From Amphiscolops sp. MND2022 (taxonomy: Eukaryota), in assembly GCA_964187785.1 (NCBI GenBank), contig OZ076409.1, positions 15,254,001 to 15,318,000 on the forward strand: a stretch of DNA of 64,000 nucleotides, in the 5' to 3' direction. A program made the translations under genes and the position numbers. Under the pieces are notes generated by a model that worked only from the letters and a program-made list of their open reading frames with translations, did not search any database and was not told the origin of the DNA. The first letter of the stretch is position 1, and every line of letters begins with the position of its first letter. Below, one piece after another: positions 31,185-63,237 of the stretch.

Positions 31185-31477
31185 GTTAAACTGTGGAGTT
31201 TCGTTTTCTGCCCACATAAATGGGGGAAAAATCTTGATCTGTGATGCGTTTTTTCCAAATTGTTCCAAAACTCCACTTCATCTCCACTCCAATTAGTTAC
31301 TTGACTATTTTATAGTTACTTGTCTATTTTTCTAGTAACTTTATAATAGTCAAGTAACTAAAATAGCGCCATGGCGCAGTTGGTAGTGCTTGCGCCTGCC
31401 AGACACGAGGTTGGAACCGGGGCTGAAGCGTTACATTCTTAGCGGAAAATATCCCGAGGCTTAGCGGGCGTCTTGTT
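31185..31477 (+). mobile_element. Short element with internal tRNA-like segment and terminal hairpin
   Basis: A-box TGGCGCAGTTGG at ~31371; hairpin CCCG..CGGG then CGTCTTGTT; inverted copy at 38071-38330 and partial copy at ~16587-16620. Confidence 0.55.
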
Positions 31478-32158: not shown

Positions 32159-35100
32159 GATGTGACTTTTTCTGATACTTCCAAAGTTTCCGTTTCTTCT
32201 AACTTCGAAAATCAAAGCCACAGCATCAACCGACGAAATGACCGACTTCTTGTTCCCATTAAAAAAGCAACCATTAGTTCATCGTTCGCAGACTGGTATT
32301 CGCCTGAAGTACTCCCAAACACCTTAAAAGAATTCCCAAAGAACTCTCCTTACTCTACTTGGAAAAGACATCTCCCAGGTCAACGTTTTTATCAATTAAA
32401 CTGTTGTTACAGCAAAATAAAGTTTCTAGAATGTGGTAAATCGTCAACTTCTTGCTCATTTTTCGTCATTTAAAAATTCAGTCACAAAAACTACTGTAAA
32501 TTTCAGTAAAACCACCAATCAGTCAGTTTTGTCAACTGCGTTTTCAAAAAAAAACATCCAAAAACCGGTTTTTGGTACTTATGACATTCGATCTTTTTGA
32601 TCTTTTTGAGATTCGATATTTTTTCTATTAGCCCACAGATCAAGTACACAAGGAGGCCACTCGAACTTTGTGAGGCGACTTTTGAATGGGTACTCAGTCG
32701 GGTTGGTATTCGATGATACGTTTCTCACCAGTCGACTCCTCTACGTTGGCGCCGACATCTCAAGACTGGAGAACTTTGCTGAAGAGTTGAACAGTGCCGA
32801 TACAGGTGATGAAAATTCACAATTCGTGTTTTTTTTGCCATGGGAGCGCCTTTTTTCGAATTGTTTCAGAAGAGAATGAGTTTTGGTGAATTGTTTTCAT
32901 GTCTATCTATGGTTTGGCTTTTGCAAGAGCTCAATAAGTATCTGTTGAATCTATTTCGTTTGAAAAATGAACAAAGTATCTCAAAGACATCAATTCTCTT
33001 GGTATTTTCAGGGTTTCTTTGAAACTTACTACTTACAAATTCAAATTCATTTCAAAAACTTAAGTGAATCGGAATTCAACCCTGGTGCATTCCAACAAGA
33101 CCATTCAAAATTGAGTACATGAGAAACGGATCAATTTAATAATCCACGTCACCAAATATCCCGTTTTAAAAATCCACACCGATTTTTTTATTTCCAACTA
33201 TTTATTTTGTTTGGGGGACTGTGAAAATATTACATTTGTTTAAGGGTACATTGGAAAAGGGGAAAAGTTCAGAAAAACTTACATCTCAATTCTCCGAAAG
33301 CAAGCCAGTCGTCTCGGCAAAGATAATGGAAGTGTACGCGTGAATGAGTTCAGGAACCGGTCCTTGGATTTGATCCGCGATTGGAATGAAGAACTGGGCC
33401 TGAGAATCCAGAAGTCTTGTCCAGTAGTCATAACCGAAGTCAAACAAGATAGTCCAGGGTGTAAAGCTGGAATACGTTAGTCAACAATCAAATTCTTTTG
33501 ATCATCATCATAATTATGTCACTGAAGTAGACCAAAAAGTGTTTCAACAGAAGTTCCATAAAAAGTTTCAGGATCAACTTTTACGCGAACCATTAGAATG
33601 TTCGCGAGACATCCATGCATGGAATCTCTGTTTTTCAAGAAAAGTTTTGAAAACCATAAAAAGCCAAGTTTTTGCGCTCCGCATAGTAAGAAAACCACTC
33701 AAAAACTTCTGAAAAGTAAATTTAAGCCTTCTCTTAAAATGGGGGGTGGGGTTTGGAAACAATGTTTGTTGATGCTTGAACTAGATTTTTTTTCAATACT
33801 GTGGAAAAACACTGTCAAGAAATTTAATTAGGATGCAAATGAGGCTATTTCAAATAGTTTGGAAAAAGTAGTAATCGGATTTTAGATGTTGGTGACATGA
33901 TTGCTGTGATTAACAACGAGGATGTATGGCGAGAACCTCATGGTTATGTTGCGCAATTATTACGTAACAAAGGCAACATGTCTGTGGTTGTGAGCTCGCC
34001 CGTGTCTTATGCCCTGAACAACGACTGCAAGCAGATGGTTTTAGAGTCGGGCTATTTGTTCAAACACGACTCGGAGTTCGGCTGGCTCCGGTGGTACTGT
34101 GTGCTCAAAAGAGACGCTAATCTCTACACTTACAGGTAATTCGTTCCTGCAATTGACCTCCAATGTTGACCTGAAAAATTGACCTCAAATGTTGACCTGA
34201 AAGGGGGACCTCAAATGTTGACCTGAATGAAAAGTTGACTTCAAATGTTGACCTGAAAGCTCTCCGTGAACTTCAAAAGCCTAAACAAATCTGATAATGG
34301 ACATCGAAGTATTGTCTTCTCGAAATAATAATCCATGAATCATGTTATTTCTTAAAAGGTGTCGTGTTTAGTGTTCTTCAAGTCGTTAAGGTTTACAGAT
34401 CTAAAACTAGCTCAGAAAGTTTTTTGATGCAAAACATCGGTTTAAAAAATCTTTTTCTCTGAAACAATTTTCGTTCCTACTTTCATTTGTAAGTGTGAAA
34501 AAAAACGAATATTTGCTAGAATAAAAAAACGCAGCGTTTGTTTTTTTTCGTTCACCAATGGAACAAAGCTTCTTTTTATTTTGACTTTATCCAGAACGGC
34601 TTCTGAGCTGATACCTTCCGGAGTTGTATCTGTGACCGGATGCCTGATAGAGCGGTGTCCAGATGCCAACAAGCCCTTCAGCTTCCAGATAATTGATACC
34701 AACAACTTACTCACCGTCAGCTCATTCTATGCATCCATTGATGAAGACTTCGATCGGTGGATTTCAAAATTGAATCTTGTTTCCAAAAAAAGCTCTCCCA
34801 ACAATCTTTGGCTCAGCGTTTTCAAGTTCGAGCTTGCCACACCTGCAGGTATGACAGAAGTTTCCATTGAAATTTTCATTTGAATACTCAAAATACTAAA
34901 AATATAAGGAAAAATTTTTTGAAAAAATAAAAGTGTATAACTTTATTCATAGCCTGTTTGTGTCTACAGCGTGATGTAGTGGCTAGAGCATTCGGTCTGT
35001 ACTGGGGCGGTAGCAGGTTCGAATCTCTCTCAACTCGCCATTGTTGGGCCTTAAGCAAGTCATTCATCCCTGGCTTAGTGGCATGGTTACGACAAAAAAC

Positions 35101-36195
35101 TCAATCTGCGGAGAAAAGCAAAATTGAAAAAAGCAGCAGTGAGCAGTCAGACCTTTGTGACCTTTTGAGCATGTCACTTTGAAACAACAGCTTCAAGTCG
35201 ACAATTGCTTGACCACTTGGCTGCAAATATGCTACCCATAGCTTGTTGCTATGGGGCGATCGCATCCGAAATGGTGCAGACTTGAAAAATCAGAACGGCT
35301 TATTCGGCATCCATTTCGCGGAATTGTGGGAAAAACTTCCTTTTTCTATCTCCAGTTTTTAAAAAATCTTCTAATTGGAAGAAATAATTGGATCATATTT
35401 CCTATTCCCCCTGGGGTGCACCTTGTTTCGAATTTCCCCCGAAAACATATTTAATTCTTGAAGAAAAATATCTCACAAATAAAAGAATTTTATATGAATG
35501 TAAATACTTAGATAGTCTATACAGCTGTTTTGACAGTTCCAGCAAAAATTGACCCTAATTTTTTGATAGTATTTTCTGAATTTCCAGCAAAAATTCACCC
35601 TTGAGACAAGCTGAAATTGTATAAAAAGGCGCCTTTTTCAAAACAACTTTTCTACTCAACAAAATAACTTTAGCACCTTTAACTGTGAATTAATGTAAAA
35701 GATAGAATTATGTCGACATCGATTATTTTATTGGGCCACATTTCAACTCATATGACGTCGACGTAAAGGAATTTGAACCTTGTTTCTTATTTCCCGCAGT
35801 CGCTTGGGGGGGGGATGAGACACATAGTCCAAACAATTAATAGAGTCGTTTTAGGTCACATTTTGGACGCCGAATGCAGCGGATTTCTGAGCATCAGTTT
35901 GAGCGATAATGAAGGCATCATTTTCCCAGATCGCCGATGGTACTGCTTCTTGAAAGACGGAGCTCTTTATTTCTATGAGAAGATAGACGCAGTGAGCAGC
36001 ATTGGAGCTCTTCTGATTCACAACTACAAAATTACTAACGAAGCGGACGACTTTAGCGCAATCTTAATTTCAACCCTGCCCAAAAGTCATCCAACTCTTG
36101 TTCTGAAGTTTTGCTCAGCCAGTGAAAAATACAGATGGACTTCGGCCATTCATCACTCACTTCAGCTGTGGATGAACTTGGAAGAATTTAATTAA
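32159..36195 (+). CDS. Spliced PDZ + tandem PH domain protein (PDZPH1-like), 3' part; exons 32159-32435, 32632-32805, 33245-33475, 33886-34135, 34595-34848, 35855-36195
   Basis: All five junctions are GT-AG with matching phases (1,1,1,2,1). PDZ: ELGLRIQKSCPVVITEVKQDSPGCKAGIHVGDMIAVIN. PH1: SGYLFK..WYCVLK..FSFQI..RWISKL. PH2: SGFL..RWYCFLKDGALYFY..RWTSAI. Stop at 36195. Confidence 0.85.
34152..34258. repeat. Intronic minisatellite, ~27-bp unit (TTGACCTCAAATGTTGACCTGAAAA)
   Basis: About four imperfect tandem copies visible. Confidence 0.8.
34968..35110 (+). mobile_element. tRNA-derived SINE remnant (intronic)
   Basis: A-box TGATGTAGTGG, B-box GGTTCGAATCT, then CCTTAAGCAAGTCA resembling the CORE-type SINE motif. 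Confidence 0.5.
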
Positions 36196-36899
36196 ATTTT
36201 TATAACTTTTGACAAAAAATCGGGGCTCAAACTGACCCTTTTTAAGTTTTTGTTCTGAAATTCCTTTCTGATTGTAAATATCATCGAAAGTTATTGGGGA
36301 ATCAATATTCACATTTGAGTGCTGAGTGAAATTTTGGGTGTCATAAATTATGAAACTGCTTCTATGAATTTGTTCGAAATTCAAGGCTAAATGTGGGCTA
36401 CATGTGGAGGATGTTTCAAAAAGATGCCAAATTTTTGAATGTTTTCGCTAAAACTATTCTTTTTAGGCCCATAGAGTTTCCTTTTGGGTTTTTCATAACT
36501 GCAATTTTTATCCGAATATTTTGGTGTTCCTCCAAAAGGTCGTCTTTTAAAAAAATTCCCAACATTACCTAAAAAATGTCCTTTTAAGCCCAAAGGATTT
36601 CTTTAATCACTGAGACTTTTCAGAACTTGATTAAAACAGCCTTTCAGCATATTTGATAGTTGTAAAAACGCTCTTTCAGCCCAAAGGGTCCTGTTTTGAG
36701 GTTTTTGACACTAAGACTGCGAGTTTTATCGAATTTTTTAAACGTTCCAAAGAACTTGCTAAGATTAGCTTTTAGCCAGGCACCAATCTATTCCGTTTCC
36801 TTCAGCTTGTATAGCGACCCGGGACTGCATCCAATCGCAGTCCACCGGTAGCTACCGAAAGTTCCACCGGTACAACATCAATATCAAGATGGGGTTGGC

Positions 36900-38630
36900 A
36901 TTCAATCACTGTCCGATTTTAGGCATTATTCCACCAGAATACAGTGATTTTAGATCTTTAACGAAAACTCATAACATCCTACCTATGAAGCGGTTTCAGG
37001 AAACACGGTCTTCAATCTTCAATCAGGTAATGGAGCCACTCCATCCGAGAGAGAACACAAAACTCAAAGATGATTTTGATTAATAATAATAAATTTAATA
37101 AAAAAACTAAAAGTAATAGAATAGGCGGATGATATAACAGGAGCAATCAAAACTACTTGAATCAACCGATTGCTAAAAATGTTCGAAATTTTTCTAAGCA
37201 CCGAAAGTACTGGCAATCCATCTGAGATCTTAACAATCGAGAACAATCCCAAATACTGAAGAGAACGAAGAGATCAACCCAAAAGAGAACTACGGACCCA
37301 GAAACAAGGAATGAAATATCGAAAACAAACAACTAAATATCAAAATTCAATATTAAACACACTTCATTCTGAGCCGGAGCAATTAACATTGCAGCTAAGG
37401 CACTTCACAAAACTTGAAATGTCTCGAAAAAATTAAATTCCAAAATTTTAGATAAGTTCTGGCTACAAAAAATATATTGTTAGCCAAGACGAAACACACA
37501 CCAAACAAAGATGGTGGAATAGGTTTAAAAAACTTGAGCAAAGCAGTCTGAGTGGCTAAGATACTAACCTTAGCGAACGAACCTGAAAAAATTTTCAGAA
37601 ATCGAAATAGTTCAAAATGATGACAAATGACTTGACAAAAGACAATGAATAGAGATAATGCGATCATTTTCCATTATTTTTTACATTCCAAAACCTTTCG
37701 GCAAATATTTACACGAAGTCAAAAGAAGTGTATGATTTCCTACACTCTAGCCTGACAAGCATATCGTGCATTCTAAGGATAGTCAAAACTGCTCTTTGCA
37801 AAATATTGACACGAACATTCTAGATTTAAATGTCAGAAAGTTTTGGGAAAAAAGTCAAATCCAGTCCTTTGTTAAAAATTATATCTATCTCTTAATCATG
37901 AACGCGTACTTTGATAAACAAGAAAAGTGGTTCCAAAACTTGGTACCTCATCTAATTGCTTTGCATGTGAAATCGAAATTGAAAGTTGCAACATCTTTTC
38001 TTTGGTTGTGAAAAATATCAAAACACCAAGAAATTTCTCAACATACGAAATTGTCAAGACATGGTTGAAAAACAAGACGACCGCTTAGCAACGGGATATT
38101 TTCCGCTATCAAAAATGTAACGCTCCATTCCGGGTTCGAAGCCATGATCTCGTGCTTGGCAGGCAGACGCACTACTAACTGTGCCACGTTGACTAGTTTA
38201 TTGTTTTACTAAATGGAGTACAAAAAACTGAAGATTTGGCAGAATTTGTAAAAAAATAACCCATCACAGATCATGATTTTACTCCCCCATTCATGTGGCC
38301 GGAAAATAAAACCTCGCTAGCACAGAAACTAGTTGTAGCGCTACTTCTTCCATCGTGGTCGGAATATGAAGGAAAACATTTTTATAAAATATCAAAGCTC
38401 GATGCCAAGTTTAAATATCGACCGCTAACTTCACATAAATGGATGTTGTTATTCCTTTCAATTAGTTTTATTCATTCTTCTAGTTGTCATTCTTTTTGTT
38501 TTTATAATCTTCGAAAAACTTACCAACAATGAACAACCAGTACGTATCACATATTGTAACAATGCTAATTTATATAGCTCAGTGAAAAATATTTTTGATG
38601 TTTCAATAACTGGTAAATAACTTAAATATA
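36900..38630 (+). mobile_element. 5'-truncated, decayed L1/Tx1-like LINE (ORF2 remnant); 3' end abuts SL exon nt 1
   Basis: FNQVMEPL (37018-37041), (Y>stop)ADDIT (37122-37139), thumb DGGIGLKNL (~37510-37536) and zf-RVT-like CFACEIEIES..HLFFGC (37957-38009); interrupted by a short element at 38071-38330. The 5' boundary is approximate. Confidence 0.75.
38071..38330 (-). mobile_element. Short tRNA-like-containing element nested in the LINE remnant
   Basis: Reverse-complement copy of 31185-31477. Confidence 0.55.
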
Positions 38631-38745
38631 AGCCTAATTGTTGCGATGAACGTAATAATTAGGTAAGTTTTGATTGCTTGCATTTGAAAGCCGACTGTGA
38701 AAGTGGTCTGCTGTCCAATATTTGAACAAGGAACAAGCCAATCTG
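38631..38745 (+). ncRNA. Putative SL RNA gene copy (degenerate)
   Basis: 32-nt exon 38631-38662 followed by GTAAGT, stem-loop GACTGTGAAAGTGGTC, degenerate Sm site AATATTTGA. Confidence 0.7.
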
Positions 38746-38846: not shown

Positions 38847-38965
38847 AGCTACAACCTTACCATGTTGAATGCACCGTATTTCGTCCGATCACCGAAGTTG
38901 AACAACATAGGGCCTGGTTAGTACTTGGATGGGAGACTGCTTGGGACCACGAGATGTAGTAGCCT
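38847..38965 (+). rRNA. 5S rRNA, diverged copy, probably a pseudogene
   Basis: CGATCACCGAAGTT, GGTTAGTACTTGGATGGGAGAC and oligo-T terminator; several substitutions relative to 63764-63882. Confidence 0.9.
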
Positions 38966-39402: not shown

Positions 39403-39972
39403 CGCCATTTGTATCAAAAACGTGGCTTAACTTCGGTGACAAATTTGCAAAGTGAGTCAATATGAAAAGATAGCAAAAATCAGACGAAGCCGTTAAAAAG
39501 AACGTCCAAAAAAACAATTATGCTGGAGTTTCGGCCACCATCAACTGAATAATCAATGAGTCGAGGCATTTTTTCATTTTGTCATTAAATGTGGATTAAC
39601 GTCAGTGACAGCTTTGCAAAAAGAGTCGAAAGTGAAAGATAACAAAAACTAGACAACTCCATTGGAAGGAAGGCCTTGAATTACCCCTAAAAGGTTTTTT
39701 ATACTCCAGGGTGGCTGTTTGATAGTACAATAGTTTTCATTTTTACTCAAACCCACCTAATTTATTCAGTGAAAATTTTTGTAATTTAGACAAACTTTTG
39801 TTTTTTTATTGTTTTTTTTCTAATCTTTTTAGTCATGATTTTAGTCAAACGTTTGAAACGTTGCCGTTCATCAAGAAATGTCTCTCAAAACAAGTTGTTG
39901 ACTGGTAATGGTGGATTAGTTATATTATTTAGTTAGTCAGTTATTTTTGCCTTTACCCTAATTGTTGTGATA

Positions 39973-42337
39973 CACAAGGCGCTATGCTGTCAAAGTGAAT
40001 TCTCTCCAATCTCTTGCTTTTGTGTGAATTTTGCATTGAACGAATTGAAACAAATTATGCTCAAATTGCTACTGAAAAACCACCAAAAAAGCAAATTTCT
40101 AACCACTTTTTGTTAAGTTTGTCTTACGAATTGCCGAAGAACCTTGAAAGATTGTAAATTAGTTAACCAACACGGAGAAAAGTGTTGAAGTTACCATATA
40201 CAAATACCCTAGTTGAGACTGCTTGAACTTCTTACATGCTGCAGGACTGCACGCAGGGTAATTTTTTATAAAACCTGGAAAATTCAGGAAGCATCCGGCG
40301 GTAAATCTTGTAGAATTAGACTGCATTTTCCACTACTGCAATTAAATTTGAAAATATTTCCCGCTTCTTTTCGGATAAGATCACGTTGTATTCACATTTC
40401 ATTATCTCAACTACTCATCTGATTTAATCACCGCTTCTCAAATAGAACACTGAAGATGACGCTAGTTTGTTATTTACATTGTGAATGAAGTTATTTTGCA
40501 TTAAAATGTCGGCAAAATTTTTGACGTCTCAGCTGCATTTAAAATTAGAACTGATGCATAATAAAAGTTGCAGAACTTAACGACCGGAAATTGCCGCCAA
40601 AACTTTGATGATTCGTTCAAGCAGCTTGAGAAAAGTTGATGACAACAGGGAAATAGTAACGCATTAAAGTCTCCGTAGGAGTTTTAGAAAATCATTTAAA
40701 AAGTTGGTGGCAACTTTGAAGAACATGTAAAAAGTTCAAGCAAGTTCAACAAGGGTATACAACCCTCAGAACAAAAAAGGAAATTCAAATTTCTCTAACT
40801 GTTTTTGCCCTGCCTATCTTCGAAAACAAGCCCAAACATTATTATCGAGCGGCATTACCATGGCGGGAAAAACAATTACTCCTTACTCAATTTACGACAT
40901 TTGCAAAACTGAAGCGGGTTACCCCAAAAAGTTGAGAGTGTCTTTCCGAAATTTACCATATTTCTTACCAAGAGGAAAGATACTTCAATCCTAATTTCAT
41001 TCAATTTGAAAAAAATTTCATCAGAAACATCGCTTTCCAAATAGAGGCCGTTTCTTACAGGAATTGCCAGAGCAGAAGGAATTATTGGCACATTGGATGA
41101 AAAAAAAACGATTGAAAGAATGGGCTAAAAATGCAATCTTACTAATATTTGACAGCAATGATGCATTTTTCCAATGCCACTGACCAGCTTCACAATCAAA
41201 CAGAGGCTAGATAGCAATTACGAAGCAGACATTTTTTCCCAGCAAAGATGCACTGAACAAAGAAAAGTCAGAAAATGCCAACGTTGTTGCCGAGAAAAGT
41301 GCCCCAGAATATGTAATAGAAGTGGTGACAGGAAATGCCCAATGTGAAATAAATTTCAAGAAAATGCAGACACAAAAGGCGACCTGGCTCCAATTATTCA
41401 GTGTGATAAAAAAAACAGCAATACAAAGGAGGATAAGGAGACAGAACCTGCCAAGAAAGCAAAACAATCTGAAAAACCAGCATACTATGTAGACAGTATC
41501 AAACGAAAAATCTTTGGTGAAGACGACACGATCAAAGCGTACCCTGAAGCTCAAAACTTGATAGATGAAAGACATAATATCAGAATTGAAGAAGACAACC
41601 AAAAATCAACGAACGAAGTGCTCTATGTAGAGCAGTTATCTATTGAAGGACACGAAACTTTGTTTGAAAACTGTACAGTTTGTTATGATGAAACTTTCAT
41701 TGAATCATAATAAATTAGAATTGAAGAACAAGTGTTCTGCTGTTTTAAATGACGAGAGGCTCACTCTCATTGCTGCTAACATTCATGATGATATCAAGAA
41801 AGTTTATACGCTTCCGACCTGAAAAAAGCACATTTTTAAAACTTTCAAATCCAAGTTTTTCATACGTGTAAAATAGTGCCATACCTCTTAATGAGGTGGT
41901 ACAGTGCACGCAAACTTACCACCATAGTACAAACTTTTGCCATTTGTACTATGAGTGAAACGTAAAAAAATTTCAAAATGTTTTTGAGACAAAACTACGT
42001 TATTTGAACCGCAGACCCTTATTGCACATGAATTTTAATGTACTGTTCCCATTTTCTGGAAGTCTCTTGAACAGCATTCAACGCTCTTAAAACAAGGAAA
42101 ACTTCGAACTCTAGAACTATCTCCTTCCAGGAGCTTTCCAAGAAAAAAATTTGTTTCTTCCTTCATATAAATACATCAAAATCATTCAGCAACCAAGCAT
42201 CTGATACTACCACTTTATGCATTTACTCAATTCATTGAATACATCATAATGCAGTGCTATTTACCACCTGTTAAACTTTATACTTACTATAAAAACTCTT
42301 GATTTATAAAGGCAAATTTTCAATTTACTCCATTAAA
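39973..42337 (+). mobile_element. ORF1-only (HAL1-like) non-LTR element inserted in the SL exon
   Basis: Flanked by 18-bp direct repeats of SL nt 1-18 (39955-39972, 42338-42355); decayed ORF1/RRM-like text LLSSGITMAGKTITP...LRVSFRNLP (~40840-40960); no RT motif seen. Confidence 0.65.
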
Positions 42338-42607: not shown

Positions 42608-43394
42608 TGTAACGGCTGCTTGATCCCTTCACTTGACCAAACTTTACGCCGCCCTGAGTTCGGTGATCGGCACTGCGGATCGTTTCCGAACAGTGCTTGC
42701 TTCTTTTATTGAAAGGACTCTATCTTGACTTAGTAGGATCTAATGATCTCGAATTGCACTTCTTCCTTGTCTCTTAACACGTCCAAATCTCCACAAGTTG
42801 AGAGTAACTAACTTAGTCGTCCCAAGTCTTTGGCGAAAAGACGAAAAGAGGTGAAGAAATGAATTGAGAAAATGTGTTGTCTCGAGACCCGACTTTAATA
42901 CAGCTTTCCAATCAAGTTGTGCCCATCTAGTAATAGTATACATATCGTTTACAAATATTCGATAAATATGAGTTGAAATATGAAGTATAAAAAATGACAT
43001 TTAAAGCATAATATGAAGTTATTGGCTAAGTAAACAAACTATATGGTGGTTCTGACATGATTTTTAGGTAGACTAGAAAGTGTATAACAGTGTTTACATT
43101 TTTGGGACAATGACCTTGTATATCGCACATGCGAAGGGTAAAGGGGTTATAGTGGGTGAATGACCTTGAAAATTAGCCGATGTGTCCATGTTAGGTCGTT
43201 GCATATGTGTGCCAAGTTTCGTGGCTCTACGATTTTTAGTTGTCGAGAAAATCCCAACAGGGGGGAGGTTTCCATTTGGTCCACCTTGACTTTTCATCGA
43301 AATTTCATCTAAGTTATAAGGTGTTTAAGTTCTTGTTTCTCAACTAGCATGTTCCAAATCGAATTTCTCTGCTTTCTGATGACTAGCGCCAACA
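42608..43394 (-). repeat. BEL 3' LTR
   Basis: Direct repeat of 50105-50952 with a ~60-bp deletion; the pol ORF ends inside it. Confidence 0.92.
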
Positions 43395-46300
43395 TTGCCG
43401 GCCCTGTTTTTCTCCCGAAAAACACTTTCAAAGAACAGGGGTGTCAGTTCCACTACTGGTATTTTGAATTCGCCAGCTTTTGTCTTAGCTTTTGATCTGA
43501 CACTGCAATCGCTTCCTTCTTGTACTTCGAATACTCTCGCCATCTTGTTTTTAGACTGCTTCACATTTTCATCCACAACCCAAACCAAATCATTTACTCT
43601 GAGTTGCCTCACACAATCTTTGTTCCATTTATTACGCACGTTCCATTCCGAGAGATATTCCATTCCATTCCGTTCCATGGTCCAGATCATATCTGAATAT
43701 GCTTGCGACACTCTGAATACGCGTCTCAAGTCCGTGTAGCGTTGAGCATCTGTTTGGAAAGGTGTCGCTAAATTTGCTCTTCCCAATAAGAAATGATTTG
43801 GTGTCAAAGCTTTCAGGTCATCTGAATCGTCACTAACACTTGTCAGTGGTCTAGCGTTCAACGTCTGCTCTACTAAGCACATAGTTGTTATGAGAACGTC
43901 GTCTCTCAAGGATCGTCCATCGAGTACAGCTATCATAGCTTTTTTACAACTTCGAACCAATCGTTTCCAGATTCCTCCAAAATGAGGGGCTCCAGGAGGG
44001 TTGAAATTCCACTTGTCATCCTTTTGAGCTAGAGACGTCTCAAAGGCTCACTGATTCCATGCATTTATACAATCTCTCATTTCGTTGGCTGCACCCACAA
44101 AGTTCGTCCCATTATTGCTCAAAATTGTAGCAGGTTTGCCTCTCTGGGCAATAAACCGTGTGATAGCAGTTAAGCAGGTTTCTGCTTTCAAAGATCGGAC
44201 AACTTCGATGTGTACTGCTCTAGTCGTCAAACAGGTGAAGAGACAGCACCATCTCTTCATAGTCTTGCGCATAAATTTAACTTCAAACGGACCAAAATAT
44301 TCAACTCCAGTGTTGGTGTAGGAGAACACTCGTTCCTGCAATCTTTCTCGTGGTAAATCAGCCATAAATGGTTGACACACTCCCGCTTGTTACTTTCTAC
44401 ATTTAACACATTTCGCTTTGACGCTTCTCAGGGCGTTTCGCAATCCAATATTCCAGTATTCTTGAGTTAGAACTCTTCTGACGTATTCTGTGTCTTCATG
44501 AAATTTTGTTTGATGTGTATCTTCAATCAACTTGATGACAACATAATGCTTTGTTGACAACACGATTGGGTGTTTGATTACATAACTTGACTTTGAATGT
44601 TGCAGTCGACCTTGTAGTCGTAGCAAACCATTTTCGTCCAGAAACGGCGATAATTTATTCAACTGATCTGAAACCGACAACGGCTGCCTTTTGGAGATCT
44701 TCTCGAGGGCATCATGAAAACTTTCCTGCTGACAACGCTTCAAAATTGCCAGTTTTGCCGCATTGAGTTCTTCAACTGCCAGAATTCCTTCGAATTTCTT
44801 TTCCCTCCATCTAAGGCAGTATGACAGCACTCGAATCGTTTTCTTGAAAGACCCAAATCTTTCCCTTTTGAATGCGGGTTCCATTACCGCAGCTTCCATG
44901 ACTGGTTCAGGCTCTTCTCGTATGCTAAATTGCAATTTTTCAGTCACCTTAGGCCAGGCGTCTTCTGTCTCGGTGAGTCACGCCGGCCCTGTGAGCCACT
45001 CACTTTCACTTTTTTCAACTGTCGTTCCTCGAGTTCCAATGTCAGCAGGATTCAGTTTTGCTTCACGATGCCGCCATAGTTGAATTTTCGAGATTTTCAG
45101 CAACGCGGTTTGCCACAAAGACCAGTTGTTTGTTGTTGCTTGCTTGAAGCCATTGTAGGACCGTTGTTGAATCTGTCCAATGTATAATTCGGTCTAATTC
45201 AATATCCAAATTCAATTCCAAAACAAGCTCTCGCAGTCCTACTCCAAAAACTGCTGCCTGCATGCATCTCCAACTTAGCCACTGTCATGTTTCGTATTGA
45301 GGCTAACTCTACATTTTCCGATCACAAAAGCGATTTCGCCATTTTCTTGCTTTCTCAAATAAGCAACCATACGCATTGCTTCCAACGAAGCGTCTGAGAA
45401 GACATGTAGATCTGCTTTGTTCACACCTGACTCAAAATATGTTCTTTTGAGTGGCATTTGGTTCACATGTATCATCTCTGATGCCCATCTCTTGAATTCA
45501 TGTCGATTTTTTTCATTCAGTTCTTTATCCCACGACTCTCCGTTCTCCTTCCATATCATTTTCAGTAGCAGTCGCTTTCTTATGGTGAAAGGAGACACTA
45601 TTCCCAGAGGGTCGAATACAGCTGAAACATGAGATAACACCGCCCTCTGCGTTATCTTCACCGGTATCTCTTTCTGCATGCCTCTACAGACTTCCAGATT
45701 GTCTGCGTCAACGTTCCATTGCAGTCCGACAATTGATGGAGAAGTCGGCTCAGCTTCAAAGGTTTTACTACAAAACGGTGACTTGTCTGCTTGGTCGATA
45801 TACATCATAGTCTGTTCGCAGTTGCTAATCCATTTTGTTAAGTGAAAGCGTCCCGTTGCCAACATCGCTCTTAACAATTTGTAGATTTCAATAGCCTGCT
45901 CCACAATGGGAACAGACTTGACAAAGTCATCCATATAGATGGTTCGCCTTATCAGTTTGGTAATACATGGGGACTCCTGTGTGCTATCTCTTGCAACTTG
46001 TTGCAGTGCATAATTGGCGCAAGTTTTGACTCCGAAGATATGTCTTCCATATTCATACACATTTACGGGTTCGTTTGGATTGTCTCTCCATAGAAATTTC
46101 AACACTTTACAATCTTCTGGTGGTACTTTCACTCGGAGGAAAAATAGCTGCAATGTTAGCAGTGATGGCGATCTTTTGTTCTCTAAACCTGAAGAATGTT
46201 CCAATCAGATTCTGCAGTAGGTCCGGCCCTGTCAAGAGGTTATCGTTCAGGGAAACTCAACGGAAGTTTGATGCTGCGTTGCATACTCGCCTCACCTTTC

Positions 46301-49300
46301 CTGTTTTTTTTTGGAGTTTTTACTGGGTGATGTGGAACATACCACTGTCTTTCCAATTTTGTAGCTTCTAACTCTTCTTGATTCAGGATTCTGACGAATC
46401 CCTTTTCAACATCTTCTTTGATAGAGTCTTGATAGAGTGTCTTCAACTCCGGTTTCTTTTCAAGTCTATACTCCAACGATTTCAAATGGCTCAATGCAGA
46501 AGAGTAATTGTTCGGCAAGATGGGGTCATTCCTTTTCCAGAGAAGGCCAACTTCGAATCTTTCACCATCAAACTTTGTGGTTTGTTCTAGCATCTGCAAC
46601 GCTTTCTAATCGTCCCTGGACCTTCGAGATACATCACAACGGGATGCATAGGCTTCAATGTCCCACCAAGTTTTAATCTGTTCTGCCAACACGTCATCTT
46701 CAGAAGCTGTTACGCAAGATGCAGGCATCTGCACATCTTCTTGCTGTGAAAGTGGTCCACAGAGAGTCCATCCAAGTTTCGTTTTCACTGCCCACGTCTC
46801 ATCATTCGTGCCGCTTTTATATTCTTCAGGCCAATGTATATGTTAGAAAATCTGTCCCAATATCCTTTTTACATCTTTGAGTTTCAATGTTTCTTCGCTT
46901 AGCACTGACAAATGAGGATAGGCATATTTGAGCTCCCGATAGTCGTATATCTTTGATCCGACGTCTATGTTTGCGTGCGTGTAGACTGTCATGTGATGTG
47001 TGTTGCTCCTTGCCTTCCCACGAATTCCCACGGTGGGTCGTTCACATTTCACTTCATTTGTCCCATGCATTCCAGCCACACTCAGATCAACTTATTGACC
47101 GTGAGCATTTAATTTGTCAGCTAATTCCTTGTTTATGAACGATAGGCTCGCTCCAGAGTCACACAGCGCCAAAGTTGATTCTTGTTTTTTCCCAATTTGC
47201 ACGATGACGGGTACAACAGGCAGTATTCCACGGCTTTTCAGCAAGCAAAATGCTGAATTTGCCTCCGTTTTCTGCTGTGGGTCTTCCGATCCACTTTCTT
47301 TCTGCCGTTCATTCGCCTCGCGATGTAGCAATCGATGATGCCGCCTGCTACTACTTTTGACTCCACACGCTTTGTAAGTGAAATCTTTCACCACATGTTT
47401 TCGAGCCAAGCAACCAAAGCAGAAATTCAATTCGTTGGCTTTTTCATATCGTGCTTGACAAGTCATCTTCAGAAACTTCTCGCATTTCCCCAAAGGACGT
47501 TTACCATCTTTCAATGGACAATCATGACCAGTCTTCTTGTTGGGGCTATCGTCAGCAAAGGTTGAGAACGTAGAGTGGTTTGGCTTATCTTTACGTGTCC
47601 ATTTCGATTTGTCTGCGTTGGAATTGCCTGTCATGAGAACATCTTGCTTCATTGCTGCTATCTCTTGCAACCATGCGTTGAACGCTTCCAGCCTCATGTA
47701 GTAGCTGGCATTTTGTCTCGTGTAAGTCAGCTATTTTGTTTTCATGTTCAATGGCGGTTTTCTGGTCGCACTACTCAGGACGTCTTCTGACTGCAAGTCT
47801 CCAACATAGTTCATCTGCGTCAGAACTTGTACAAAACTTTAAACTATTCTTGAGTATTAGACCAATGCTACAGAGTGGTACGCTTTCACTAGTGGAAAGG
47901 TGTAAATTCGTCTCCGTTGTGCGTTAGCTACAACTTGTGGTCTCGCAAAGTGCGCACTCAAGGTATTCCACGCAACATCATACAAGTCTCCAGTGTAGCC
48001 TAGTCCAGCTATTACTTCCTTTGCCTTTCCAGTGACCAGCGTTTTGAGGTGATTCATCTTCAGACTTGTGTCAATGTCCGCAGTATGTACAGTCGAGAGG
48101 AACAACCCTGACCACTCGGGCCATTCCAATGGGTCACCTGAGAATTCTGCTAACTTCAGTTTTGGGAGACGGGCTGGTAGACTCATGTTTTCAATACTTG
48201 TGGGTCCGAAATGACTATGTGGGGGTGCAGTGAGGCTAACAGGGGGTGAAACATGTGGCGTTACCGTACCATTTCTCACATTGTTATTCGCTGTTGGCTG
48301 ATTCGGAAGTAAATCATTTCCAAACTGAACATGTTGTGGCGCAGCCCTCTTCAGCGTTACATGAGCTACCTTCGGGACAAAGAGATTACCCGAGTTGCCC
48401 ACGTTTGCTACTGTTGGCTGTGCCATCTTACCAGCTGGTTGAAACAACTTCGTTGTATGCGGCAATGCACCAGGTTGTTGTTGCATGGGTACGCTGGCTA
48501 GGGCGATTCTGCATACATCATTCCCATTCTTCGTTAACTTATCATCAACTTCGATTTGATCAAGCCAAGAAGGTACCTTTTCAAACGAATCGCAATAGAT
48601 GGGTACTGGGGAGCAACTTGTATTTGCTCGGCTACTTCCCGCTTGAGCTATTTCTTTTTCCTTTTCTGAGATTTGTAAGCCTCTTGCCTTTTCCTCTTGG
48701 AGTTTAGCGCATTCTCTAGTTCGTCTGTGGGTTTATCCATTTCCTCATGTTTCTTTCGGATTTCTTTGCAGCTAGTTGTTCATCAATTTCTTCTTGTTTC
48801 TTCATTGCTTCCAGTTCTAGGAGCATCACTTGCTTTGTAGTAGTTGACTTCGAACTAACTGATGTTCAGTTGCCTCTTGAATGTGCCTTGCTTGCACACT
48901 GATCTCTTTCTTCAGGTAGCGAATTCACCTCATTACCACAACGATTCACAAAGGAATAGGGTCCATCGGTACCTTGTGCCACTTCTTCATTCGCATTCTT
49001 CTGAGGAGAAGTGTCGCGGGACTTTAGTTGTTGCTCTTGCTAATTCACCCTAGCACGGCCATGATTCCCTCCATACGATGCAACTCACTGTAGATTGAAG
49101 TATCTCCACTGTCTTTCAACAACTCATCCAACTCGGCCACAATTTTATCTCTCCTTTTGAGAGTTTCTTCGTTTGTTTCTACCAATGCTTTGTAATCCTC
49201 TGAGTTGCAAAGAGTTTCCCGATTTTTATTGATTTCATCTCCGTTTTTTTGAAACATTTCATCACATTTCTCTTTGGAGTTTTGAAGTTGTAGGAACTCC

Positions 49301-50104
49301 TTCAACTGTCCATCATTCTTTAGGCTCCTCATCATTGTGAGCACCTGACCAATGTTTTTATGTCGTGTTTCCAAGGAATCTAATTCATTCCGATATTTGC
49401 AGAATCGGTCGGCTTTACTATCCGACCATTCTGGCTGATACTTGGCTTTCAAGAGTGCTGTGTTCGCCGCGACGAGTCTCTTCCATCTGGGCAGTAGGTC
49501 TTGTCGGCTCGGTAGAAGGTCTGCGAGTTTCTCCTTCGTCACGTCTGCTTTGCGTAGCTCAGCATGTATTTCATCCATTTTTGTCTCAAAGTTTTGAATT
49601 GCTCTCATGTTGCTCTCCCATTGTGGCTTGTCCATAGAACTCTTGAAATGGTTTTCAATTCTTTTGTAATCAATTTTCTTAGGTTCAGCCGTTTTGAACT
49701 AGCTCAAAACCCCAGAGTACACTAAAAGAACCAAAGAGTCCACATTTTGCTGTGAATACAATTCTCAACAAGCCGATGAAGTTGCCCAAAACCCCAGTGT
49801 ACACTATATACCCAAGAGCTCCAGTAATACCACTTCTAATACAATATCCCAGAGCCTGCAGAAGTAGCCCAAACCCCATAGTACACTAAACACAGAGGAG
49901 AGCCCAGATGTGACCACTTTGCTGCACACACAGTTTTGCAAAGATCACCACCAGTCGTCGTTCACTGTACACGTTCACTTGTTGGCACGGTGCTTGTCTG
50001 GCTGTGTAGCAATCAGACAATCTTCCAGTTGTCCGTCCAAATGATGATGTCCGCGCAATTGATTATGTCTGCCCAATTGATGATGTCCGGGTCGGCGGAC
50101 CAAA

Positions 50105-50952
50105 TGTAACGGCTGCTTGATCCCTTCACTTGACCAAACTTTACGCCGCCCTGAATTCGGTGCTCGGCACTGCGGATCGTTACCGAACACTGCTTGCTTA
50201 GATTAAAAGGACTGTATCTTGACTTAATAGGATCCAATGATCCCGAATTGCTTTTCTTCCTTGTCTCTTAACACGTCCAACTCTCCACAAGTTGAGATAA
50301 ACTAACTTAGTTGCCCCAAAGTCTTTGGCGAAAAGTCGAAAGGTTGTGAAGAAATGAATTGAGAATATGCGTGGTCCTGAGACCCGACTTTAATACATCT
50401 TTCCAATCAATTTGTGCCTATCTAATAATGGTATACATATTGTTTACAATTATTCGATAAATAGGAGTTGAAATATGAGGTATAAATAAATGACATTTAA
50501 AGCATAATATGAAGTTGTTGGCTAAGTAAACAAACTATGTGGTGGTTCTGACATGATTATAAGGTAAGCTAGAAAGTATGTTTACACTATATAAAGATCA
50601 TTAATTTCAACAGAGTTACATTCTAATGTGGTCATATAGATAAATAACAGTGTTTACATTTTTGGCACAATGACGTTGAATATCGCACAAGTGAAGGGTA
50701 AAGGGGGTTAAATTGGGTGAGTGACCTTGAAATTTAGCCGGTTTGTCCGTGTTAGGTCGTTGCATATGTGTGCCAAGTTTCGTGGCTCTACGACTTTTAG
50801 TTGTCGAGAAAATCCCGACTGGGAGGTTTCGAGTTGCTCCCCCTTGACTTTTCATCAAAATTGCATCTAAGGTTAAAAGTGTTTAAGTTCTTGTTTCTCA
50901 ACTAGCATGTTCCAAATCGAGTTTCTCTGCTTTCTGATGACTGGCGTCAACA
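50105..50952 (-). repeat. BEL 5' LTR
   Basis: Direct repeat of 42608-43394, followed on the minus strand by the PBS. Confidence 0.92.
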
Positions 50953-51189: not shown

Positions 51190-52805
51190 TATTCACTTGT
51201 TCAGCATCTTTTCAGTTGATAAGTGATTCCAACGCCCTTTTAACCCCTGTCGTGGAACAAAAAGAGAGCCATCTCCTGCTACGACGCTCGCTGGGTAAGG
51301 GGTTTTTGCACTATTCTGCTCGTGTGTGGTTGACCAAAGCAAGTTTTCCTAAAAAAGTGAGAGCATTGTCCCCCAATTTGGCCTGAGGACCAAATTGAAG
51401 CTTCCTTGGCTGGTAGCAGTCCTCAAAAAGCTATCAGTTTTAACGACGTTTCATGACCGTGTAAAGCGTTGCTTGCTCGTTTTACTCTAAACACGATTCA
51501 ACTTTTTCTGCCCCTTTGATGCTCTTGAAGCTATGTAATCCTCCGCCCTATTTACTTCGTTACCGGTTTACCTATTCATTATCGAGAGAAAACGTTGAAA
51601 AGAAAGACAAAATATCCAAAAAACCGCAAGACAAAAACAAAATATGTCAACTCTCTTCAAGAACTTTCACTGGACGGAATCGATGAAAACTCAACGGAGA
51701 ATCGATCTGAAAAACTTCCTGAACCAATCGCGATCCACCAAAAAGTTGAGAAAACCAAAATCTTGAAGCAATGAATTTTAGCAGATTAGTAACGAACAAG
51801 AATTACGAGCTTAAACACGAAGATGTTCAACAGTCTTAAAAATGAAAATTGTTCCCCGTTGAGGAAAGGCTTTTTTACCGATAGCGCTGCTCTGAAAACG
51901 AATTGAAAAGTCATACAAAGACATCCTCAGTGTCTTCCATCCCCAGCACAGCGAAATGATTACCATTTCGAGAATAACCAAGAAATTCGAAGAAAAAATC
52001 CACAAGTTTTACAAGTAATCGCCCCAGTCGAAGCAGAAGAAGACGTTGCGCGCATTAAATTAAATGAACTGAAAAACATGAATCAGACCGTCCCCTTGAC
52101 AGCTAAAGATACGTGGATGGTGAACAAGGTGCACGACATCAGAATAAACAACCTGCCAGCACTTTGCGACGATAACCAGCTAATAGAACTACTGCAGATC
52201 CCAGACTTTGCGGAGCTAGGTGAAATCCAACGAGAACGACAAAGGACGTAACAAAGAGGAACGAGAGCGCTGAGAAATTTGGTCGAAGTCAAGTGCATTT
52301 TCAGACAGCGTTTTCGGGTGCGAGCTTCCATTTTTTGCCAGCATTCCTGCTCTGTATCAATGCCAAAAAAATAAAGACGAGAAGAAGCAACGCTACAGAG
52401 AACACAATTATGACTGATGTAGAATTAACCGAAAGCGGAAACGGAATATGAGGAAAAGAATTTACGAAGTGCGGAGGATGGAAAAAGCAGCACTCATACA
52501 GACTCTTCAAATAGGTCTGATACAGAAGATGAAGAGCGAAAAAAGCAACTGCAGGCCCAATAACGACAAACATGGAGCAAGACATGGGTACTTGTGATTG
52601 GAAAACAGTAACTACAAGGTTACGGATTGGAATTGAAGTGCAACTGAAGAAAAATCGAGGACCAACTCCTCCATCAGGAACCGCAAATGTAGAAAGCGAA
52701 AAAAATCTAGAAACAAACAAAAAAACTCTCGAAAGAAGTCAATGGAGGTGCCTCAATGAAACCTGTCACATTAAAACATTGAACCTGTCACATTGAATCC
52801 TCAAT
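51190..52805 (+). mobile_element. Decayed ORF1-like (gag-like) non-LTR element at the strand-switch point of the array
   Basis: IRINNLPALCDDNQLIELLQIP..GEIQRE (~52140-52235); repeated 3' tail (AACCTGTCACATT x2). The 5' boundary is approximate and no TSD was found. Confidence 0.45.
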
Positions 52806-53166: not shown

Positions 53167-53334
53167 TCATGTACATTTAAAAAGGGAGGCCGAACAAATT
53201 CGCTGATTGGTTGAGATACGCTCGGTGATACGCGCTGCTGCAATACAGTTCAAAAGAAGATTCCGAGATGAGCTGTGAGAAAATGTGTTGCTGAATTTCG
53301 AAATAGACGTTTCAGAATCTCCAACTCTCATCAA

Positions 53335-56300
53335 CAGTGGATATCGTAGAGGTTGCGTGTTAGACTCTCAAACCAAAATCTTGAGTTTGATTCTCGCCAT
53401 CGATCTTTTTTCAAAAAACGTCAGCATGAACAGTCTTTTAAAGCGTGAACAGACTTTGGCCTTTCTTTTCCTGGATCACTCAAACGTCAAGACTGTCAAT
53501 GCTTTTAGAAACCAAAATCCGTGTGTTGTCGGAAAAGAGGCGTCCACTATCATGGAGTTTGAATCAACAACCGATAGCGTAGAGGTTGCGTATCAGATTC
53601 TCATTCCAGTGTCTTGAGTTCGAATCCCTCTGTCAACATGTTTTCCAAAGTTTTACTTCTGATTTTGTAATGCTAAGTTCACTATCACATAGCTGCAATC
53701 AACTGTGGATGGTGCAGAGGTCGTGTAACTATCTTTTAAACAGCGTGAACAGTCTTTTAAAAGCATTGGTGTTCGTCTTTTTTCTTAATGGTGCGCTTGC
53801 AACTACTGTTCAGCAAGAGATCGTGGCCTAGAGGTTGCGTTGGTTGTCAGGTTCGTCGGGTGTTATTCTGGTAGCTTTGGGTTCGGTCCCCGGAAATGAC
53901 ATGGTTCAGCACTTGAATTGATAGTGTTATGGCTTAAACCCAACTTGATTGTTCATTTCGACACATACCGTATAGAGGACTCTAAGTTCGTTCATTATTC
54001 GAATACGAATGCTTACTTTTGGAAGCGGCAAAATTTTTAACATAAAGATTTTTGAACTCCTTCCAATAACGTTGTCCATTTTTTCACATCTTTTCAACAG
54101 TCAATGGCGTAGTGGTTGCGCGTTTGATTTCCATTCCAATGTCTTGAGTTCGATTCCCTCAGTCTTTTTGTGAAAATTTGTTAGCGTGGACAGTCGTTCA
54201 AAAGCACTGGAATATTCCATTTTCTTAAAAGTGCGCCTAAAACCACTGTTTCGCAAGATATCGTGGCCTAGAGGTTGCGTTGGTGGTTAGATTTGGTATA
54301 GCGTTTTCTGGTATCTTTGGGTTCGGTCCTCTGGGAAGGAATTTGTTCCGCACTTGAATTGATAGAGTGTTTTTGCTTACACCCAACTTAGTTGTTTAGT
54401 TCGACAAATACCGAATATAGCATTCTGAATTCGTCCAAAATTTGAATTAGAATGCTTACTTTGGAAGCGGCAAATTTTTCAACATAGGGATTTTTGGACT
54501 CTTTCCAATAACGTTGTACATTTTTTCACATTTTTTCAACAGTTAATGGCGTAGTGGTTGCGTGTTGAATTTCCAGTCCATTGTCTTGAGTTCGATTCCC
54601 TCAATCAATGTTTTCAAAACGCTGTCAGCGTGGACAGTCTTTCAAAAGCGCTGGAATTTTCTTATCTCTTAGTAGTGCGCCTAAAACCACTGTTCCGCCA
54701 GATATCGTGGCCCGAAATTGTTTACGTTGGTGGATAGGGTCGTTAGAGTTTTTTTCAACAGTTAATGGCGTAGTGGTTGCGTGTTAGATTTCCATTCCAA
54801 TGTCTTGAGATCGATTCCCTCAATCAAAACTTCTTTAAAAACGTTGTCAGCGTGGACAGTCTTTCAAAAGCACTGGATTCTTCCTAACTCTTAGTGGTGC
54901 GCCTAAAACCACTGTTTCGCAAGATATTATGGCCTAGTGGTTTTCGTTGGTGGTTAGGTTTGGTATAGCGCTGTTCTGGTATCTTTGGGTTCGGTCCCCG
55001 GGGATGGAACTTGTTCCGCACTTGAATTGATAGAGTGTTATTGCTTACACACAACGTGGTTGTTTACTTCGACACATACCGAATATAGCATTCTGAATTC
55101 GTCCAAAATTTGAATTGGAAGCGGCAAAATTTTCAACATAGGGATTTTTGGACTCTTTCCAATAACGTTGTACATTTTTTCACATCTTTTCAACAGTCAA
55201 TGGCGTAGTGGTTGCGTGTTAATTTTCCAGTCCATTGTCTTGAGTTCGATTCCCTCAATCAATTTTTTAAAACGCTGTCAGCGTGGACAGTCTTTCAAAA
55301 GCGCTGGAATTTTCTTCTCTTAGTAGTGCGCCTAAAACCACTGTTCCGCAAGATATCGTGGCCTGAATTTATTTACGTTGGTGGATAGGATCGTTAAAGT
55401 TTTTATGTGTTTGTTGTCTAGCTTTGTCTTTTTCGAAGGCCATTGAAATCCATGAACTGCGTGTTTTCAGGTGAGATGTCCACCATCATCAACCGAGAGC
55501 GTAGAGGTTGCGTACTAGCCTCTCATTTCGATGTCTTGAGTTCGATTCTCTCTATCAACTTTGTTTTTCAAACTTCTAATTCCCTCACCTAATGGTAAGT
55601 TCACTATCACGTAGCTGCAACCAACAGTGGACGGTGCAGAGGTCGTGTACTAGGCTCTCATAACAACTGCTTGAGTTCGAAACCCTTTGTCAACTTTTGT
55701 TTTGCAACGAATGCGATTGTGATTCTGCAACATTGTCACCGAAGTTAAACCACGTTTTTTGATAAAATCGAAAAACCACAAATTTATAACAACATTAATT
55801 AACGACAAATGCAGATAACATTCATTGGAACGCAACATGAACTACAACATGGACGTTTTCGCGGACGACTTTTCTAAAGGCTGTGTCTTTTTTTCCAACT
55901 TTTCACATTGATCCACTTTGCAACACTGTCACCGAAGCTAAACCTCACTTTGTGACGAAGTGCATATAAGGAATAACACAGTGAAGATCCCAAAGAACGC
56001 GGCAAAACTTTCATCGTGGGGGTTTTTTGAACGCTTTTTCCAGTGGTGCTCTTCAATTTTTCACATCTTTTCATATTGACCCACTTTGCAAAACTGTCAC
56101 CAAAGTTAAACCACGTTTCTTGACAAAAAAGCTACAACAGCGTGGGAGTTTCAGTGGACGCTCTCTCTGAAGCTGTTGTCTATTGTGTTGCATCTTTTGA
56201 ACTTGACTAAGTTTCAAAGTAAGTTGAAACCTGTTGTGTTCACTATCATACATCATGTATTTGGAATCAAGAGTCAATGGTGCAGAGGTTGTGTACTAGG

Positions 56301-58070: not shown

Positions 58071-58279
58071 TCAACTTTTATTTTGCGAAGAATGCAATCG
58101 TGATTCTGCAACATTGTCACTGAAGTTAAACCATCTTTTTTGAAACAGTCGATGAACCACAAAAATATGACCAACCTAATTAACGGAACAAAGCAGATAA
58201 CATTTATTGGAAGGCAACATAACCTACCTCATGGTTAGGTATGATTTTACCTTTTATAAATTCTCAGGCCGATTTTTCG

Positions 58280-61567: not shown

Positions 61568-63186
61568 TTTGAAGACTATATTGAATGCTGAGGATATACA
61601 AGTACAAAGTAATGAAGTCTAAAGTATAGGTATAAATATCTGAGTATATGAGTAATTGAGGTATGTAAATGAATATGCTTGGTTACTTAATATCAGCGCC
61701 AAAATATTTGAGAGTAAATATAAAAAGCGCCAAATTTGAAATGAAGTTGGTATAATGTAGTTTGGAGAATGTATGAGAAGAGGTTGTTTGCTCCTGGAAG
61801 GAGTTTGTTTTGAAATTCAGTTTTTTTTGCACACAGTACTAGTAGTGTTTGAAAAGAATCGGGAATTGGGTTGGTTGGTGATGGGCATGTAAAGAAATAG
61901 GAATTCGAAAGTTCAGTCGAACAATGTCTGAATTTTTTCAGTTTTTGTTTTCATTGTATAAGTTTTCAATTGCTGTGAAAACTTGCACTTTTCTATTCTC
62001 CAATTTGATAGTGTAAACGTGGTGGTTTGTAGCGTCATAGAAAGGACCAAACTTTCGGATCATTGTGTAAAATTCAAAGTGAGAATATAAAACTGTGTTA
62101 GAGTCAGAATGTTTCCAGTTTGATTCAGATAAAAGATCTTCAATTTTTGTTTTCTTCAGTGGTTGCCCTAGTGAAAACGTCCCTTGAATTTTCTTTTCCT
62201 TGTCCAGTAAATTGATGTAACCAGACGTTTGCTGGGTTTTGATCATGTTCTTTTATAGCAGGTAATTCGTTGAAAATTGTTTCTGGTGCCAAAATTTTGT
62301 TTAGTTTCTTTTCCAAGAAAAAAGGCTATTCATGCTTTGCAGTTGACTGTTGATCAGTTGTTTGACTTTGGGAAATTTCTGCTGAGAATGTCCATTCAGT
62401 TGAGCGATGCATTAGTTCAGGTTTTTGCATAGGAAGTGTATCTTTTTTTTGAGTTGTCAATCCATGGTTCTTCAGTTTCTTCTACGTTGTTATTGCATTC
62501 CATTTCAGCACCATCATCGGCCTGCTTTGGCTTCTTTGAAATTGGTTCAGCATCATTTAAATATGACAATTCAGGTTCATTAGATATTGGCTCTGTTTCT
62601 GAAGGTTCCATAACGTAGTCTGTTGTTAACTTCTGGTTCTGAGATTTACTGTTTTTCCGTATCTGTTGTTCGTCTGGTAGTTGTTTTGGGCATCTTGATT
62701 GTTGATGAGCACTTGGAAGGTTCTCTCTGGCACATAAAAGGCAATCGATGAGTGGGAGACAGCAGCATTTGAAAACAATGCGACTGGATGTAAACGTTTT
62801 GTCATATGCATTATTAGCCCTGTTGCCTTATTACCTTTGTTGCGTAAAATTGTAGTTTTGAAAATGGTAATTTCATTGAAATTTAGTCGTTTTTTGACCG
62901 TAATAACAGCTTCCACAAACATTGAATCCAGTAATTTGATGTTTTTGAACATGTCAGATGTCAGGGGTAAAGCAAAGTTGGCAATAATTGGTTATTTGTC
63001 CATATTTGAGTTCGATTTCGATAAGCAAACAACTGCATTTTTGTAACAATTTTGTTCAACGCTTTCATTATGATGTTGATCGAGCTCATTCGTGTTCAAA
63101 TTAGTCATTACTTTTGCCACTTTTGTTGCAAAATTTGCAAGATGGCGCTGTGCAAACAAAGTTTGCAGGGTAACAGAATAACGCCG
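61568..63186 (-). mobile_element. ORF1-only (HAL1-like) non-LTR element inserted in the SL exon
   Basis: 18-bp direct repeats of SL nt 1-18 at 63187-63204 and 61550-61567; gag-type knuckle CLLCARENLPSAHQQSRC (~62743-62690); 5' end GGCGTTATTCTGT resembles GGCGCTATGCTGT of the 39973 element; no RT motif seen. Confidence 0.68.
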
Positions 63187-63237
63187 TATCACAACAATTA
63201 GGCTAAAAGCAAAGAGTCAATTTTTTGGAGCGCGAGA

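Follow-up and report, generated by a model that had tools for sequence, protein, structure and literature searches.

Within the window, by which we mean the whole analysed stretch of 64,000 nucleotides from the acoel Amphiscolops sp. MND2022, a decayed retrotransposon copy ends at nucleotide 1 of an SL exon, and it is very probably a dead, 5'-truncated copy of an L1-group LINE family with an APE endonuclease (family A), about half of whose copies lie at SL nucleotide 1 and whose transcription likely starts from the SL promoter. We also lean, by a modest degree, towards a wider reading in which family A belongs to an undescribed clade of acoel APE LINEs that has radiated over small nuclear RNA genes: SL +1 is used by no fewer than seven families, the SL donor by another, and U2 and U5 by a single family each, with poly(A)-tailed, untargeted families nested among them; the SL families would be promoter-less elements that use the SL start as their 5' end, rely on read-through RNA for priming and support ORF1-only parasites. 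If true, it would be the first case of SL targeting by APE-type elements and would provide a natural series for the gain, switch and loss of APE target specificity.

The remnant and its surroundings

The remnant is a dead, 5'-truncated LINE copy that is itself able to mobilise nothing (Table 1). Its RT, thumb and zinc motifs are ordered on the plus strand, with the frame shifting between them, and all those named in an earlier, sequence-only reading of this DNA were located, from 37018 to 38009. That reading had given the element a span of 36900 to 38662; homology in fact begins at about 37015, corresponding to ORF2 residue ~685, positions 36818-36957 match an unrelated repeat at another locus, and 38631-38662 is SL exon and not element. 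Aligned with three full-length relatives, the remnant continues without a break across the 3' UTR until AGCCTAATTG begins at 38631; the true 3' end is therefore at 38630 rather than well before it, and the 3' junction said to be common to the remnant and both ORF1-only elements of the window was borne out, all three ending at SL nucleotide 1. Over aligned columns the remnant is 81-83% identical to family A, as compared to 63-65% for families B, C and E, and its relatives in a search of the genome DNA reach E values down to 1e-202 at 69-73% identity, which is not chance. No 5' duplication or SL upstream flank of the remnant was found within 36000-37100.

Table 1. Positions of the family A copies, the ORF1-only elements and the associated features in the window
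Feature	Position	Strand	Basis or remark
Family A ORF2 remnant, RT (residue ~685) to thumb to zf-RVT; many frameshifts and stops	37015..38062	+	alignment
FNQVMEPL, RT motif of remnant	37018-37041	+	
*ADD, RT motif of remnant	37122-37133	+	
GGIGL, thumb motif of remnant	37513-37527	+	
CFACE, motif of remnant	37957-37971	+	
HLFFGC, motif of remnant	37992-38009	+	
243-bp high-copy SINE-like repeat, a later insertion interrupting the remnant	38063..38305		alignment gap and genome matches
ORF2 terminal part of remnant (LAQKLVV...SWSEYEG...KARCQV*)	38306..38414	+	
KARCQV*, ORF2 terminus of remnant	38394-38414	+	
3' UTR of remnant, without poly(A) tail	38415..38630	+	alignment
Target: decayed SL exon and splice donor; junction at nt 1	38631..38667	+	32/37 identical to intact SL
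5S rRNA gene, same SL-5S unit as the target	38847..38965	+	Rfam RF00001, 65.8 bits
Decayed ORF1-only (HAL1-like) element, 17-nt SL head (the 39972-42337 element)	39955..42337	+	ends at SL nt 1 (42338)
Second, separate family A copy: 5' UTR and ORF1 fragment	51223..52754	+	69% DNA identity over 1674 columns, family A nt 62-1708
Decayed ORF1-only element of the 1.98-kb family, SL head (the 63187-61569 element)	61569..63204	-	ends at SL nt 1 (about 61567)

Two other ways of drawing the element were considered and ruled out. The SL-like end is not part of it, since a whole SL gene and a 5S gene follow downstream and what off-target copies have in common with it is limited to the first 3-7 nt; the remnant and the second family A copy do not form a single element, since the 3' part comes before the 5' part. 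The SL targeted by the remnant is the leader published for Symsagittifera roscoffensis with one extra A in front, and trans-splicing is given in the same source as affecting about 30% of the genes in the acoels' phylum (PMC9911081). Exact uninterrupted SL starts number 1136 in the 1067-Mb genome, in 904-bp repeats where listed.

The neighbourhood is rich in other repeats. The repeat that interrupts the remnant matched 40 of the 40 genome candidates that were scored (from 3000), at 86-89% excluding the window copy; as a high-copy repeat of some 240 bp it is present both at 38063-38305 and at 31198-31477, with tRNA-like A and B boxes discernible by eye on the minus strand, and ARAGORN reported no tRNA genes in the 64-kb window. 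At 53300-58200, degenerate tRNA-like repeats are clustered with a period of 442 bp and have no ARAGORN or Rfam match. An LTR element at 42608-50952, BEL/Pao-like by eye and with terminal repeats (42608-43394 and 50105-50952) that are about 90% alike, splits the 5S gene of an SL-5S unit, and a decayed helicase-like fragment with the motif FAMTINKSQGQ, which we take to be PIF1/Helitron-like, is present twice within SL-5S spacers, at 58230-58830 and 60000-60600. A spliced gene with exons that resemble a PH domain by eye (33990-36190) ends just upstream of the remnant.

Intact copies of family A and their target preference

Twenty relatives of the remnant were taken with their flanks from the genome DNA search. 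Of these, L021 (5152 bp) and L031 (5161 bp) are intact, with an ORF1 of 432 aa and an ORF2 of 1099 and 1102 aa, respectively, stop to stop, and the intact copies located in SL genes have AGCCTAATTGTTGTGAT on both sides, a 17-bp SL duplication, and no poly(A) tail. A Pfam scan of the intact copies found RVT_1 in ORF2 (E 2e-32) together with Exo_endo_phos_2, Exo_endo_phos and zf-RVT, these three at E 2e-5 to 3e-4 and under the curated cut-offs, and the best PDB match of ORF2 is human L1 ORF2p (residues 20-878, E 3.5e-56). The endonuclease is an N-terminal APE, the protein ends 50 residues past zf-RVT, and ORF2 carries the APE motifs N, E, Y, DxN, D and DH, whose residues we take to be catalytic, as well as YADD. 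In the predicted structure of ORF1, two RRM-like domains, with a pLDDT of about 90, precede a C-x2-C...GH-x4-C motif; the model matches tandem RRMs at a Foldseek E of 3e-6, and structural comparison gives a Z of 8.4 with an rmsd of 2.2 over 79 residues. Ten young copies are at least 99% alike, which indicates that family A has been active recently. The intact copies, N-terminal APE and SL flanks that the sequence-only reading had proposed looking for beyond the remnant, and the 5' duplication that it could not see there, are all present in copies of the L021/L031 type.

The preference of family A for SL genes is best appreciated from its 3' ends, a search for which gave 28 candidates, all scored and all representing distinct ends, one of them from a chimeric non-autonomous element with a family A tail. 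Eleven lie at AGCCTAATTG, two have altered junctions but still lie in SL genes, and 15 are outside SL genes; the ten young copies are divided equally, five in SL genes and five elsewhere, and a poly(A) tail is absent at all 28 ends. SL targeting by family A is a preference, not exclusivity. With 13 of 28 ends in SL genes, family A lies above the figure of more than 20% of flanks in one repeat type that has been used as the criterion of target preference for Tx1 families (PMC4494074). The off-target ends start with GCC in 12 of 15 cases and with one mismatch to it in the other three (P 6e-24), and among the four bases 5' of 11 reconstructed empty sites, drawn from several families, T occupies 31 of 44 positions (P 1e-7). 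The "SL-specific Tx1-like family" of the sequence-only reading is thus real as an APE family of the L1/Tx1 group inserting at SL nucleotide 1, but its specificity was overstated, more than half of the ends being elsewhere; random insertion by intact relatives, which had been named as the finding that would count against such a family, is not what the SL ends and the GCC-like off-target ends display.

The SL-flanked copies belong to both young (99%) and old (80-88%) subfamilies, are distributed over four chromosome-scale contigs and differ in their truncation points. Independent insertions are nevertheless fewer than copies, since L021 and L031 are 99.8% alike with similar flanks and L156/L157 and L162/L166 are duplicates of each other off target.

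SL heads, duplications and a proposed route of insertion

Eight full-length off-target copies were examined, four of family A (L023, L024, L025 and L030), one each of families D (L109) and E2 (L111) and two ORF1-only elements (L139 and L140), and all eight carry an SL head that covers SL nt 1-17 wholly or for the most part; the base at which head and element meet does not differ between off-target and array copies, being nt 17 in A and nt 16 in D. The SL upstream flank is missing in seven of them, and in L109 the head is preceded by TTTTA. Exact family A 5' junctions number 13 in the genome, all of them within copies already sampled. Because these full-length copies start with SL nt 1-17, transcription from the SL promoter is implied, and an RNA that begins at the SL transcription start would be the simplest reading of the heads.

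The off-target copies also appear to record two modes of second-strand joining, one with duplications of 16-17 bp and another with duplications of hundreds of bp. Six of the eight full-length copies have duplications of 639, 177, 596, 576, 180 and 306 bp, and L030 and L109 have none. Perfect duplications of 16, 17 and 15 bp flank the truncated copies L022, L161 and L106, respectively, and L162 and L166 have imperfect ones of about 16-22 bp; the pattern has exceptions in L030 and L109, in the truncated L035 (278 bp) and in L028 (none), and the duplications are complex or weak in L029, L033, L038, L105 and L170. The 15-17-bp duplications of truncated copies show the staggered nick, of about 16-17 nt, to be genuine. 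The A that precedes GCC at off-target junctions is missing from most empty sites and so derives from the RNA.

The route that we propose begins with an upstream SL promoter firing at SL +1, which would yield an RNA whose first 17 bases are the SL bases preceding the element and which probably terminates a few bases inside the downstream SL copy. The endonuclease would cut the bottom strand right behind the T-run of the top strand (TTTT|AGCC in the SL), and the 3' end of the RNA would anneal to the GCC(T) primer, this pairing replacing that of poly(A) with T, whereupon reverse transcription could begin; the top strand would be nicked 16-17 nt further downstream. In an SL gene the end of the cDNA would match the overhang, allowing an exact join that again places an SL promoter upstream and a complete SL exon downstream. 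Off target, judging from the lengths of the duplications, the mismatched SL head is probably resolved by joining further downstream, which would create the 177-639-bp duplications and, in all likelihood, promoter-less dead ends. The ORF1-only elements may take this route too, in trans. A nick at TTTT|AGCC combined with short read-through pairing to the primer is favoured by the U2 and U5 families, which also insert directly after a T-run, although an element that simply ends in A, with no 3' read-through, explains the data too.

The same junctions might be left by a family that merely prefers the short motif TTTT|GCC, its excess in SL genes arising from the retained promoter, from tolerance and from array turnover. 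Such a family would be expected to be transcribed only from its SL-located copies, and the near-identity of some array copies and the 15 of 28 ends that are off target, all GCC-like, agree with it. GCC, however, occurs at 0.7% of positions, which amounts to about ten million sites as compared to about a thousand SL starts, and one SL base is shared by two subfamilies with several truncation points and by at least seven diverged autonomous families and ORF1-only families, while relatives are equally exact in U2 and U5, all of which makes a preference for the short motif very unlikely. The SL heads could likewise have been acquired by template switching onto abundant SL RNA, or by trans-splicing, instead of by promoter capture. 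A dispersed RLE-type element of the same genome does bear a whole SL-like exon, and snRNA-derived heads made by template switching are known for SINEU and Tx1-Mar (PMC4494074), yet switching is expected to leave variable boundaries where the observed boundary base is constant within A and within D, and trans-splicing would be expected to transfer the entire exon as far as the donor; we therefore judge either origin of the heads to be unlikely and retain transcription from the SL start as the reading of choice.

Related families, ORF1-only elements and affinities

A protein search of the genome, in which 150 of 5149 candidates were scored and 20 loci were sampled, uncovered further families with long open ORF2 frames. 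Families B, C, D, E, J and K insert at the same SL start as A, for at least seven families in all, with duplications of 15-17 bp in B, C, D, E and J and of about 13 in K. Family M (L120, G000:C1:16.47 Mb) occupies a second SL site at the exon/donor boundary, family G (L114 and L115, G000:C4:81.10 Mb and C5:28.06 Mb) lies in U2 snRNA genes after CCTTTT with a 13-bp duplication, and family N (L121, G000:C11:39.25 Mb) lies within the CCTTTT|AC loop of a U5 gene, also with a 13-bp duplication. Families F, H and I (L112, L113, L116 and L117) have A-run ends and are dispersed, and they are nested among the targeted families in the RT tree. Related families with differing targets within one genome constitute a ready comparison set. 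In addition, a tandem copy of family G has the U2 5' end as its start, a parallel to the SL head; L112 and L116 are near tRNA or U5 genes; and a tandem family L (L119, G000:C3:17.1 Mb) ends near a U1-like 5' motif, a U1 target for which there was no Rfam confirmation. A different set of dispersed copies (L124-L134, L138 and L141-L143) shares a whole SL-like exon and common 5' sequence; L133 of this set encodes an RT (Pfam E 2e-11) and additional motifs that are presumably those of a CRE-type restriction-like endonuclease, and the SL-exon-headed element is likely a retrotransposon with trans-spliced RNA. A metagenome scan disclosed no close relative, the best segments having 20-33% identity.

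Family A has the features of the L1 group, namely an ORF1 followed by an ORF2 that has an APE domain at its N-terminus, then an RT, and a zinc motif at its C-terminus. In the RT tree it groups with L1/Tx1-type proteins (100/99 support) against 14 unclassified distant RTs, and the acoel lineage forms its own clade (100/99) on a long branch within a basal polytomy, not nested with BAC82613, which we take to be a zebrafish Tx1-type element; with reference labels that are partly provisional, neither joining it to the BAC82613 group (p 0.40) nor joining it to lizard RTs (p 0.38) is rejected by the AU test, so that a Tx1-like and an L1-like sister are both compatible with the tree. ORF2 is about 1270-1300 aa in the BAC82613 group and about 1090 aa in the acoel lineage. 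The Tx1 elements also use an APE and have U2, U5, 5S, transposons and microsatellites as targets (PMC4494074), and those such as Keno in U2 resemble family A in their combination of APE and RT, their preference for multicopy RNA genes and their possible co-transcription with the target (PMC4494074, PMC4640811). The likeness extends to the acoel sister families G and N in U2 and U5, but SL genes are not among the Tx1 targets named in these two sources.

The SL niche was earlier described for elements of trypanosomes and nematodes with restriction-like endonucleases, and in acoels it appears to have been reached by APE. Like family A, the CRE clade of trypanosomatids (SLACS, CZAR, CRE1 and CRE2) occupies a fixed position in SL RNA genes with target duplications (PMC12278014), and NeSL is an SL-gene-specific non-LTR element of animals, namely nematodes (PMC4640811). 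In contrast, the CRE elements are described as having an endonuclease of the restriction-like type, in most cases a single ORF, and a poly(A) tail, and NeSL as a member of an RLE clade with a Ulp1-like protease, found only in nematodes; family A has two ORFs, no tail and no restriction-like endonuclease after its RT, and its APE is unrelated to the endonuclease of NeSL. A literature search, which did not extend to Repbase or Dfam, turned up no publication that describes SL targeting by an APE-type element or by any element of acoels, and family A is probably an undescribed target-preferring APE LINE family in SL genes. With intact copies that are 99% alike and have exact junctions, the transcription of promoter-less target-specific LINEs becomes testable, as do the shares of the endonuclease and of RNA-target pairing in specificity.

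The ORF1-only elements are abundant and often tandem in the sampled array stretches, where intact copies are 1.43-1.98 kb long with one ORF and a 17-bp duplication. In consisting of ORF1 alone with retroposon junctions they and both neighbours of the remnant are like HAL1, a known group of ORF1-only non-autonomous elements (PMC5753468); the acoel elements differ in being site-preferring and of an old lineage, their proteins being homologous to the autonomous ORF1s yet only 18-29% identical to every one found. The remnant had been put forward as the candidate autonomous partner of the two ORF1-only elements in the window, and it is doubtful that family A is the specific partner of both. The same target base, the same 17-bp duplication and a last ~10 nt common to family A and the ORF1-only elements speak for such a partnership, and elsewhere a 1.38-kb non-autonomous element has 330 nt of family A tail at 85%. 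The tail of the 63187-61569 element, however, resembles those of E2, E and B (z 8.3, 5.3 and 4.2) and not that of A (z 1.4), the low identity of the ORF1 proteins extends to all autonomous families, and at least six other families could provide ORF2. The 39972-42337 element has no clear partner, its tail scoring best, at z 3.2, with an older subfamily of family A, so that the proposed partnership fails for the one element and is at most hinted at for the other. Since the last ~10 nt are common to all, cross-mobilisation is possible. Minimal inserts of 28-65 nt also occur (L041-L045, at G000:C1:16.266 Mb, and L104), each an element tail between two SL heads.
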